A stretch of 64,000 nt of DNA, from positions 27,368-91,367 of the forward strand of contig JAOULX010000007.1 of the NCBI GenBank assembly GCA_029881795.1. Reading direction: 5' to 3'. How positions within the stretch are numbered: the stretch's first letter is position 1; each line of letters begins with the position of its first letter. Origin of the DNA: Gammaproteobacteria bacterium. GTDB lineage: Bacteria > Pseudomonadota > Gammaproteobacteria > SZUA-229. A program made the position numbers. Below, one piece after another: positions 36,001 to 39,000 of this stretch.

Positions 36001-39000
36001 TTGTCGGATCCGTGTAATAAACCTGCCATTCATCATAATCATTCAGACCATCGCCATCAGAATCCGCTAAGGCCGGATTACTAGTGATAAGGAAAGCAGG
36101 ATTAATCGCAGCAGGATCAGCCGTTAAATAGCCGTAAAACTCATTACCATCACTGATACCGTCTCCATCACTATCGACAGTCAAAGGATCGGTACCAAGC
36201 ATAAATTCTTCACGGTCTGATAAATTATCTGAATCAGAATCTTTAACATAAACCAGCCGCAACTTATCACCGGCTATAATCGACAGGTTTTCAATATCCT
36301 GAATTACATTTGGTGTGTAGATTTCAGTGATTGTATCAATACCGCCGTTAATCGTATGTTCATGTGCAACCAGCCATGACTGATTCGTCAGACGGTTCGC
36401 TGTAACCTCACGAATATTTTCGAAACTTGTAGAGGTAGTCGGCGTAATATCCCCTGCCACTATTAAGTCTTCGGTGATGACTGCGTAAGGTATTTTTAAA
36501 ATATCGACCATGACCTGACGCAACGTTATATTTTGTGAGCCTGGTGCCGATGCTGTCGCTACCCGGTAGGTTTCAGTCGGGCGGGCAGTACCATAATCAA
36601 TGCTAATAGTTGCCGTACGCGCAGTTACATCATCTGACAGGTTAACCCAGTTGGTTTCACTGTTATCAGATCCCAGATTATTTTCACCAACAATCGGTGT
36701 GATCACCAGATCCTTATAGTTGCTGATCAGTGTTTTATAATTATCAAGATTCATATCCATGCTATAGATATTACCGCTTGCAGCAGCACCCACCGCCATC
36801 GGTATCGAATTGCCGACAGCTCTTGAAAGAGTACCAATCGGTATACCATAACCACTGGCGTTATTACCGGCCATAATGACAGAAAGACTAAGATCGTTGA
36901 GTGTATAGGCGACATTACCCGGGTTATCAACACTGACATAAAGATTCATCTGAGCAGAATCAATACTGATACTTGAATCTGTAGATGTGGCCTGTAATGT
37001 GCTGTATGACTGAGTCGAGGACGTACCTGATGTTTGCGACCAGTTACTTTCATTGGCGTTGGTATCGGTAAAACCCGAGGTTAATTTCAACCCTACTTTC
37101 ACGGATGGTATCGATGATACTTCGGCTTCAATTGAGACTTCTGCACTGAAACTTCTGGCAATAGAATGGGAGTCACTGCCACCAGTAGTTGAACTGGTCT
37201 CATTGGAGACGGCATTATCATAACCGGTACTCTGACTGTTTGAGGTACCATCAGCCGTGGTGTAATTAACACTGAAATTTGGTACACCAATGGATACATT
37301 AAGTTTGGGCACATCGGCAATCAGCGGGTTAAAGCTGTAGTTATTATTGGCAGAATTAAAGTTTTTATTAATGATTTCTTCGTAGTCACTATAACCATCG
37401 CCATCGGTATCAGCCACATCAGGATTGGTATAATAGAGATTAATCTCATCACTATTGGTTAAGCCATCTCCATCAGAGTCCTGATTACCTGCCGGGCTGG
37501 AACTGGAACCACCACAGCCAGCCAAGCCAGTCATTAATAACAGCATTAAACTGCTGTATCTGAATTTATTTGTTATTTGCATAATATCCCCGAAATGCTT
37601 TTTATCTTATATTAAGTTAAAGATACCCAAAGACCCGAACCGTCGCTCTGCTCCCATTCTTTTAAATATCACAGGATTTTTACCATGCCAGCGTCCAACT
37701 TCCGTCCAATGCCTGAAAAGCACTAAAGCGGTTTCAAGAAAGCCGTTTCATGACTAACGAAAAACCGGTATATTTTCGCTGCGATTCAATTCGATACTTC
37801 TCGATTAATCACTTAGTCAGCTGACTGATATAGAGAAAATAAACATCGAAAGAATTGAAAATAAATGAAGACCTTAGATAAATATCAAGTAATAAGTCTT
37901 TTCTTAGGTTTATTAATAGACTTCATTCCAATGACTGCTTATCATCGCGTAACATAATGAACTCTTGGCTTATATGGATATGACAACGCTCCAACTCTCC
38001 TTAATGGGAGCCATTGAAACTTCAGCCAACAACCAAAACATCGTTCTCAGCTATAATAAGTTACAGGGGTTACTGGCAATACTGGCAATGTCCGCCGATA
38101 AGCCACTGTCTCGTGATATGCTGGCCGACCTTTTCTGGCCGGATATGCCAGAAAAAAACGCAAAAGAAAATCTCAGACGAGCTTTATACAACCTGAAGTC
38201 CGCCCTTGGTGACGCAAGCCGGTTACTGATCTCCAATAAGAAAACCGTTAGCCTGGAAAGCACCGGCTTATCGCTCGATATAGATGTCATTCGTCATATC
38301 ACCACTTGTTCAGCCGAACTTAATATTGCTACCAGTTATGGCCAGCTCGAGAAGCAGATTAAACTTTACCGTGGTGAATTCATGACCGGATTCACATTAC
38401 CAGATTCACATTACCAGATTGTCCCGATTTTGAAGACTGGCTGCAGCTGCAGCGAGAATTACTACAGCGCCATATGCTCAGCTCGATTGAACAGCTTGCT
38501 AATTTTTATGAACAAAACAGTGACTACAATAAAGCCCTGTCATTAGCTTTGCAGTACTGTGAGATCGACCAGTGGAATGAAGACATGCAGTGTAAAGTCA
38601 TGCGGCTTTATGCATTAAATGGTCAGAATAACGCTGCTATTAATCAGTACGAATCCACCTGTAATTTTTTCAAAAACGAGCTTGGAACAGAACCCAGAAA
38701 AGAAACCCATCATCTGGCCAGACGCATTCGCAGCGGTGAAATCAGCGCCCACCGAAATGAGAAAACTCTGGAGAATATTGTCTGTGAACTCTACCGATCT
38801 GTTGATCAGCCGGATCAGTGGATGGATGTTGCCGGTAAGATTGCTAATCTAGTCGGTGCTGAAAGATTTTTATTTGCCAGTCGCGATAAAGTCAACCTTG
38901 AAATGAAAGGAGATATTTACTGGGGACTTGGAGATGAGGCTTATGAGGCTTATATCAGTCATTATTCCAATGTAGATATCCTCTCGCAAAGACTGGAACA

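Follow-up and report, generated by a model that had tools for sequence, protein, structure and literature searches.

In a 64,000-nucleotide stretch of contig JAOULX010000007.1 (positions 27,368 to 91,367, forward strand) from the Gammaproteobacteria bacterium assembly GCA_029881795.1 (GTDB lineage Bacteria; Pseudomonadota; Gammaproteobacteria; SZUA-229), hereafter the window, in whose own numbering all positions are given, a regulator gene that starts at 37965 and ends at 39637 is interrupted at 38389-38420 by a tandem duplication of a 14-nt unit. The undisturbed gene would encode a regulator consisting of a winged helix-turn-helix (wHTH) domain, a BTAD domain and a sensor-like C-terminal part. 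We consider it likely that the duplication is a spontaneous microhomology-mediated tandem duplication (MTD), that it is real and recent, and that it breaks the sole copy of this regulator, leaving an allele that is most likely null. As a mutation it is ordinary and of a known class; the regulator that it hits is unusual. It provides a tidy natural example of such a mutation apparently disabling a regulator in an uncultured bacterium.

At the site, the window reads ...ccg gattcacattacca gattcacattacca gatt gtccc..., with the two units placed head to tail and no spacer between them. Copy 1 of the unit (GATTCACATTACCA) lies at 38389-38402 and copy 2, which is identical to copy 1 and supplies the 14 surplus bases responsible for the frameshift, at 38403-38416, both on the forward strand. 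The next four bases of the same strand (38417-38420) are GATT, which is the start of a third copy and serves as the microhomology arm; 18 bases are therefore repeated at an offset of 14, and the perfect copies of the unit number 2.3. Direct reading, Tandem Repeats Finder (TRF) and a scan of the whole genome (entry C11:65756, period 14, 18-match run at offset 14) all recovered the two copies. TRF reported a period of 14 and 2.9 copies with 92% matches across 38381-38420. The higher copy number arises because an older, imperfect copy of the unit just upstream, which in the TRF register is catGaccGgattca (38381-38394, forward strand, 12 of 14 positions matching), was counted as well. Chance alone does not account for such a structure. 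The real genome contains 71 perfect tandem duplications of period 10-40, whereas three first-order Markov simulations of the 2.93-Mb genome contained 5, 6, and 6, with periods of 10-12 throughout and never 13 or longer. Other perfect tandem repeats found by the scan of the whole genome included a 17-nt unit in approximately five copies (C21:141495), a 14-nt unit in approximately 3.4 copies (C24:94112) and in-frame 18- and 27-nt units (C19:172303-172389).

The 14 extra bases move the regulator gene from frame 0 to frame 2. Its N-terminal piece (37965-38546, forward strand, 193 codons), delimited by open reading frame (ORF) reading, Pfam and the alignment of homologues, is read in frame 0 from a TTG at 37965 and is native up to 38402, encoding the winged helix and, up to ...LYRGEFMTGFTLP, the first third of the BTAD domain, after which 47 out-of-frame codons follow to a stop at 38546. 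The C-terminal piece (38402-39637, forward strand), delimited by ORF reading, Pfam, a structural model and Foldseek, is open in frame 2 from 38402, where it begins with RFTLPDCPDFEDWLQLQRELLQRHMLSSIEQL..., to the stop at 39637. It encodes the rest of the BTAD domain and approximately 290 residues that are predicted to form two alpha/beta sensor-like domains. The residues FTLP(D) are encoded in both frames across the two copies. When one copy was removed by script, the stop-to-stop open frame across the site lengthened from 419 to 556 codons, and the one-copy gene read from the TTG at 37965 encodes a protein of approximately 552 aa. The case is mainly useful as a warning for annotators, since gene calls give ORFs of 188 and 387 aa here, the latter starting mechanically from an ATG at 38474, in place of the single original gene of approximately 552 aa.

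The Pfam BTAD model matched the C-terminal piece with 49.9 bits (E 5.5e-13) over profile positions 47-146 of 146, while the Trans_reg_C model on the N-terminal piece scored 21.5 bits, under its cut-off of 26.2. Given that the BTAD match starts only at profile position 47 and that Trans_reg_C is below threshold on the N-terminal piece, the break lies inside the BTAD domain. As predicted from the coding sequence, the DNA-binding head loses its connection to approximately 100 of the BTAD domain's 146 positions, to the sensor and to all else that lies downstream. This domain anatomy argues that the two-copy allele is most likely null. The regulator has a single match in its own genome, as found in a search of 41 related genomes.

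Comparison with intact homologues supports the view that the duplicated segment was ancestrally present once. A search of a large protein collection with the C-terminal half considered 3811 candidates and returned 20 hits. Among these, the ten proteins P0003-P0012 are 556-576 aa long, are 50-60% identical and cover the whole query. Any match was found in 4 of the 41 related genomes, the window's own included, and a full orthologue in just one genome of the same genus (G003), where it is one intact ORF of 581 aa with 51% identity. The relatives are titled as metagenome-assembled genomes of Gammaproteobacteria or Chromatiales. The alignment built from these sequences has 11 full-length rows (556-581 aa), that is, the ten database proteins and the G003 ORF; apart from its later start, P0010 is identical to the protein of G003, which leaves 10 distinct proteins. 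At the site, each of the 11 rows has the residues of a single copy, with no gap or insertion, and the motif LYRxEFMxGFxLPxCPxFExWL runs through it. The two halves encoded by the window tile every row gaplessly, with the N-terminal piece aligned to homologue residues 1 to approximately 157 and FTLP as the sole overlap.

The same alignment was used to look for decay. Where all other rows agree, the window departs from them at 9 of 135 columns, compared to 9 of 135 for P0011 and 10 of 136 for P0006, both of which are intact singletons that served as the comparison. Against the 11 full-length rows, neither a second lesion nor an excess of changes at conserved positions was detected. This lack of decay at conserved positions suggests that the event is recent or that the gene was under selection until recently, and the inactivation is probably recent. 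The first-pass annotation of the window had described a 14-bp unit present twice in tandem, whose deletion to one copy restores a single ORF of approximately 550 aa with no other lesion, and had regarded the inactivation as recent; the results above bear out this description. A strain-level relative was not found in the collections searched, in which the closest protein is 60% identical. Scans of genome contigs and of metagenome contigs yielded three loci each, the closest being 55% identical.

Both pieces of the gene are open and the ATG at 38474 begins a 387-aa ORF, which would fit a functional split state, either as two separate proteins or as a full-length product made by ribosomal frameshifting. 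Such a state is, in our judgment, highly improbable. Searches for stand-alone halves, which covered near lengths and depended on shared 5-residue words, returned no stand-alone N-half or C-half form beyond the products of the window itself: among the 20 hits obtained with the C-terminal half, the only short form stopping at the break point was the window's own 387-aa product, and the search with the N-terminal half gave a single hit among 27 candidates, which was the window's own 188-aa product. Inspection by eye revealed no slippery heptamer of the type X XXY YYZ in frame 0 between 38389 and 38546 and no clear Shine-Dalgarno motif before 38474, and any shift would leave extra or wrong residues within the conserved CPxFExWL block. 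With neither a heptamer seen by eye nor stand-alone halves found among proteins of near length, programmed frameshifting and a functional split were rejected.

The genome is a draft assembled from a metagenome, with 27 contigs and a completeness of 97.5%. This raises the question, also posed by the first-pass annotation, of whether the real genome has one copy and the second was introduced by assembly or sequencing. One sediment-metagenome run (X1) contains all sampled words of the window and a second run (X2) 14% of them; the only run with the full stretch is also probably the source of the genome itself. Among the runs listed as containing the stretch, none is of RNA. In the Logan assembly of X1 (k=31), which was produced by a different method, a contig of 10,597 bases with a depth of 46.7 spans 37600-38496 and includes the two-copy form, with no differing letters and no gaps relative to the window. 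The whole two-copy structure is 32 bases long, which is shorter than any read, and no 30-mer is repeated in the one-copy form. By this reasoning, a k=31 graph cannot create the second copy. Since a second assembler yields the two-copy form, an assembly artefact is unlikely, and we assign very little probability to a duplication arising from assembly or sequencing. The two-copy allele is real DNA and is the form assembled at approximately 47x in the probable source sediment sample.

The rarity of such lesions in the genome is also at odds with an artefact. Perfect tandem duplications whose unit is 7-40 nt long, but not a multiple of 3, number 256 genome-wide, and in only 3 of the 256 does the open frame gain at least 100 aa on dropping one copy. 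Two of these three candidates (C18:10918 and C19:287460) were discarded as gene-splitting duplications, one being a gene end and the other an ordinary TAATG gene junction. The duplication in the regulator is therefore the sole gene-splitting case in the genome.

In the Logan contigs of X1, breaks occur at approximately 38496 and 38567, and a 130-base piece (38467-38596) has a depth of 43.1, with the flanking contigs at 46.7 and 47.8. These observations suggest that, 80-150 nt past the duplication, the sequence encoding the BTAD domain has a minor variant. Run X2 is a second sediment metagenome from another study. Two of its contigs, covering 39022-39172 and 39533-39779 at a depth of 2-3, are identical to the window, and the duplication site lies outside them. 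The same or a very close organism is therefore present there at low abundance.

The duplication has the features of an MTD. It consists of two perfect head-to-tail copies of an ancestrally single-copy segment, and GATT occurs at 38389, 38403, and 38417, so that a short identical arm opens the unit and recurs immediately after the duplicated segment. In the TRF register, the one-copy ancestor would read catGaccGgattca cattaccagatt, a direct repeat that is imperfect (10 of 12 positions), has a spacing of 14 nt and contains a perfect 4-nt core. We propose that this ancestor carried GATT twice, 14 nt apart, within this imperfect repeat. In the course of replication, ...ACCAGATT at the nascent end may have re-paired with ...ACCGGATT upstream, so that 14 bases would have been copied twice. 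As a result of the 14 extra bases, the frame is lost approximately 46 positions into the 146-position BTAD domain. Precise reversion would be possible by slippage across the 18 repeated bases, as for any MTD.

MTDs have been described in fission yeast, where they arise at microhomology pairs, frameshift genes and revert in approximately 1 in 10,000 cells, a rate 100 times that of their formation, and where fixation of MTDs by drift or selection is still considered possible (PMC8639346). MTDs are also reported in bacteria and archaea, in which they are described as the principal type of tandem duplication that varies between strains (bioRxiv 10.64898/2026.02.28.708716). Like the MTDs of Schizosaccharomyces pombe as presented in PMC8639346, the duplication in the window is a head-to-tail duplication of a short single-copy segment with a shared end arm, here GATT, and is frameshifting, precise and revertible by slippage. 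It differs from the described MTD systems in that one state only is seen, in the contigs of one metagenome, and in that the arm lies within a longer imperfect repeat. Neither a GATT pair nor a repeat was found at the corresponding site in the orthologue DNA of three loci (L002, L005, and L006), two of which (L002 and L005) are identical at the site and hence provide two distinct orthologue sequences. The predisposing sequence thus appears to be an accident of this lineage and not a conserved design.

Several points weigh against a real and recent null allele of MTD origin. The support from the Logan assembly is not independent of the reads from which the genome was assembled. Contigs lose rare variants, and the share of one-copy cells is beyond their reach. 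The downstream ATG at 38474 could in principle yield a 387-aa product that has no DNA-binding part. Finally, the one-copy ancestor is reconstructed from the collinearity of proteins rather than seen in DNA.

The first-pass annotation had raised the possibility of a reversible switch by phase variation. In such a switch, gain and loss of 14 nt would toggle the regulator and thereby its divergently transcribed neighbour, which encodes a protein resembling anthrax protective antigen (PA-like; see below). Genes for surface or pore-type proteins are often phase-varied, and the candidate target is a protein of this kind. The lesion is also perfectly clean, with the gene otherwise intact. According to the reversion rates given in PMC8639346, intragenic tandem duplications can be high-frequency reversible switches, and phase variation of the pneumococcal capsule by intragenic duplications has been reported (Waite 2001, 2003, cited in PMC4022640). 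In the capsule system as described there, a tandem duplication inside an ORF likewise constitutes the off state and the precise loss of a copy the on state; switching was, however, shown in culture, whereas here the affected gene encodes a regulator, the host is an uncultured sediment bacterium, and one state is seen.

Two of the features expected of a contingency locus are missing at the site. The 14-nt unit is present in 2.3 perfect copies and does not form a many-copy hypermutable tract, no repeat or predisposing sequence is kept in the orthologue DNA of the three loci mentioned above, and the duplication is the sole such case in the genome. The Logan assembly is unbranched at the site, yet it kept branches 80 and 150 nt downstream; this carries little weight, as contigs show presence only. 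Similarly, the two-copy form alone is found in the contigs of a single sample (X1), and contigs may drop a minority form. That part of the earlier proposal which concerns slippage is mechanistically plausible, as it is for any such duplication (PMC8639346), and easy reversion is generic to the class. Given that reversion is a generic property of MTDs, it provides no evidence of an evolved switch, and the selected, toggling part of the proposal did not find support in the orthologue DNA. A selected ON/OFF switch is accordingly rated as unlikely. We similarly doubt that the duplication toggles in the sediment populations, with the MTD acting as phase variation between a null and an active form of the sole regulator and turning the PA-like protein off and on under fluctuating selection. 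Should both alleles coexist in the reads, the case would become more important. Little evidence exists for MTD-based switching in wild populations of bacteria. The reading preferred here is that of a spontaneous MTD causing a simple knockout.

The regulator itself, together with its locus, may outweigh the duplication in interest, as it combines a SARP-type module with LuxR-type/PAS-like sensor domains in a gammaproteobacterial-type genome. A profile of the family aligned collinearly with EmbR (2fez; residues 8-267, E 1.5e-10) and with the SARP part of AfsR (8hvr; residues 40-284, E 6.7e-7). These matches cover the first approximately 260 profile positions and run from position 9-11 into the N-terminal domains of EmbR and AfsR, which argues that the head is a full SARP-type module; the first-pass annotation had called the protein a SARP regulator. 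Like EmbR and AfsR, the protein thus has an OmpR-type winged helix and a BTAD domain. The winged helix is recognized by the profile; the Pfam Trans_reg_C model falls under its cut-off in the window as noted above and also in the homologue P0008 (25.9 bits). The BTAD domain, detected in both the window and its homologues, directly follows the winged helix and scores 67.7-76.6 bits in intact homologues, compared to the 49.9 bits obtained on the C-terminal half.

No Pfam family matched the last approximately 290 residues (38774-39637). In a structural model of the C-terminal half (predicted local distance difference test [pLDDT] 72.5, 10-row alignment), two alpha/beta domains follow the BTAD helices. 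Foldseek matched this model to phytochrome PAS-GAF arrays (E 1e-6) and to the LuxR-type ligand-binding domains of CepR2, LasR, and VqsR (target TM-score 0.59-0.71). These matches suggest that the C-terminal domains are sensor-like and resemble LuxR-type and PAS-GAF domains. In the database relative P0013, the same C-terminal module is fused to a GerE helix-turn-helix and not to a SARP head. Sequence searches of solved structures with the C-terminal half and with the divergent neighbour returned nothing useful. 'Large' SARPs are described as carrying NTPase and TPR extensions, and proteobacterial hits to the SARP profile as mostly lacking the HTH or BTAD part (PMC7040171). The architecture found in the window is therefore unlike the types printed there, with two alpha/beta domains in place of the NB-ARC/TPR extension of 'large' SARPs. 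In contrast to the SARPs of actinomycetes, which are pathway activators in secondary-metabolite clusters, the regulator has a gammaproteobacterial-type host and no biosynthetic cluster beside its gene, the neighbours being cobalamin genes and a gene for a PA-like lipoprotein.

The latter gene (34589-37582, reverse strand), which was delimited by its ORF and characterized with Pfam, a structural model and Foldseek, is intact, is transcribed divergently from the regulator and encodes a predicted lipoprotein of 997 aa that is a candidate target of the regulator. The protein has a lipoprotein-type signal with the motif LAGC, which we take to be the lipobox. Its calcium-binding repeats matched the Pfam model TSP3_bac with 86.3 bits. 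The Pfam model Binary_toxB (calcium-binding domain) scored 22.5 bits over residues 470-546, under its cut-off of 25, which does not place the protein in that family, and no other Binary_toxB family model was among the hits at E up to 0.01. The model of the first 560 residues is of low confidence (mean pLDDT 56.8); on it, all Foldseek matches listed were PA, iota Ib, CDTb, or Vip1 (E 2e-9 to 1e-7, TM-score 0.21-0.36). The designation PA-like, i.e., resembling the fold of anthrax protective antigen and binary-toxin B components, is thus a fair but soft prediction.

Cobalamin genes flank the insert of two genes that the regulator and the 997-aa gene make up, with cbiB, an aminotransferase gene and a periplasmic binding protein gene on the minus-strand side and cobQ, cobU, cobT, a phosphatase gene and cobS on the plus-strand side. 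Three copies of the PA-like lipoprotein family (approximately 1000 aa) are present in the genome, the two others (G000:C10:81888-83411 and G000:C7:142084-143583) being 33-36% identical to the protein of the window; matches to NarL-type response regulators lie within approximately 1.3 kb of both of them. In two genomes of the same genus (G002 and G003), PA-like orthologues with 63 and 62% identity, respectively, follow a gene for a 200-aa REC+GerE response regulator. A conserved synteny between the regulator family and the PA-like gene was sought and not found, as the orthologues of the regulator have other neighbours, i.e., a gene for a glycine-rich protein in G003 and MFS/HlyD efflux genes in L006. 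Given that a regulator gene stands beside the PA-like gene in every occupied case, the broken regulator is a likely controller of its neighbour, as judged from gene position. The suggestion of the first-pass annotation that the regulator was lost through selection against costly pore expression draws on the same gene position, and the PA-like orthologues of the two same-genus genomes adjoin the REC+GerE gene, not this regulator.

The gap between cbiB and cobQ is a variable slot, as seen from the window (34245-39838) and from the corresponding loci of two genomes of the same genus (L024, G001:C6:40000-52000; L025, G003:C104:12500-24500). It is empty in G003, where cbiB and cobQ are divergent and 67 bases apart, and in G001 it holds a gene for a 1060-aa paralogue (36% identity) together with those for a divergent REC+GerE response regulator and a hybrid histidine kinase. 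This slot, which is flanked by cobalamin operons and accommodates PA-like genes that each have a regulator of their own, is the second by-product of this study that may outweigh the duplication in interest.

The regulator gene and the divergent PA-like gene are separated by 382 bp (37583-37964), which were examined by sequence reading and for repeats. Promoters controlled by SARP-type regulators carry direct repeats that overlap their -35 region and to which these proteins bind. No Rfam family matched at the gathering threshold between 34000 and 40200, and a scan of 37500-39900 for promoters and terminators was uninformative, with 4 promoter-like sites compared to 5.2 expected and no terminators. 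The intergenic region contains an imperfect 14-nt tandem repeat at 37725-37752 (AAAGCGGTTTCAAG / AAAGCCGTTTCATG) and two occurrences of GAAAATAAA with a spacing of 22 nt at 37835-37865; these intergenic direct repeats may constitute a candidate operator for the regulator.

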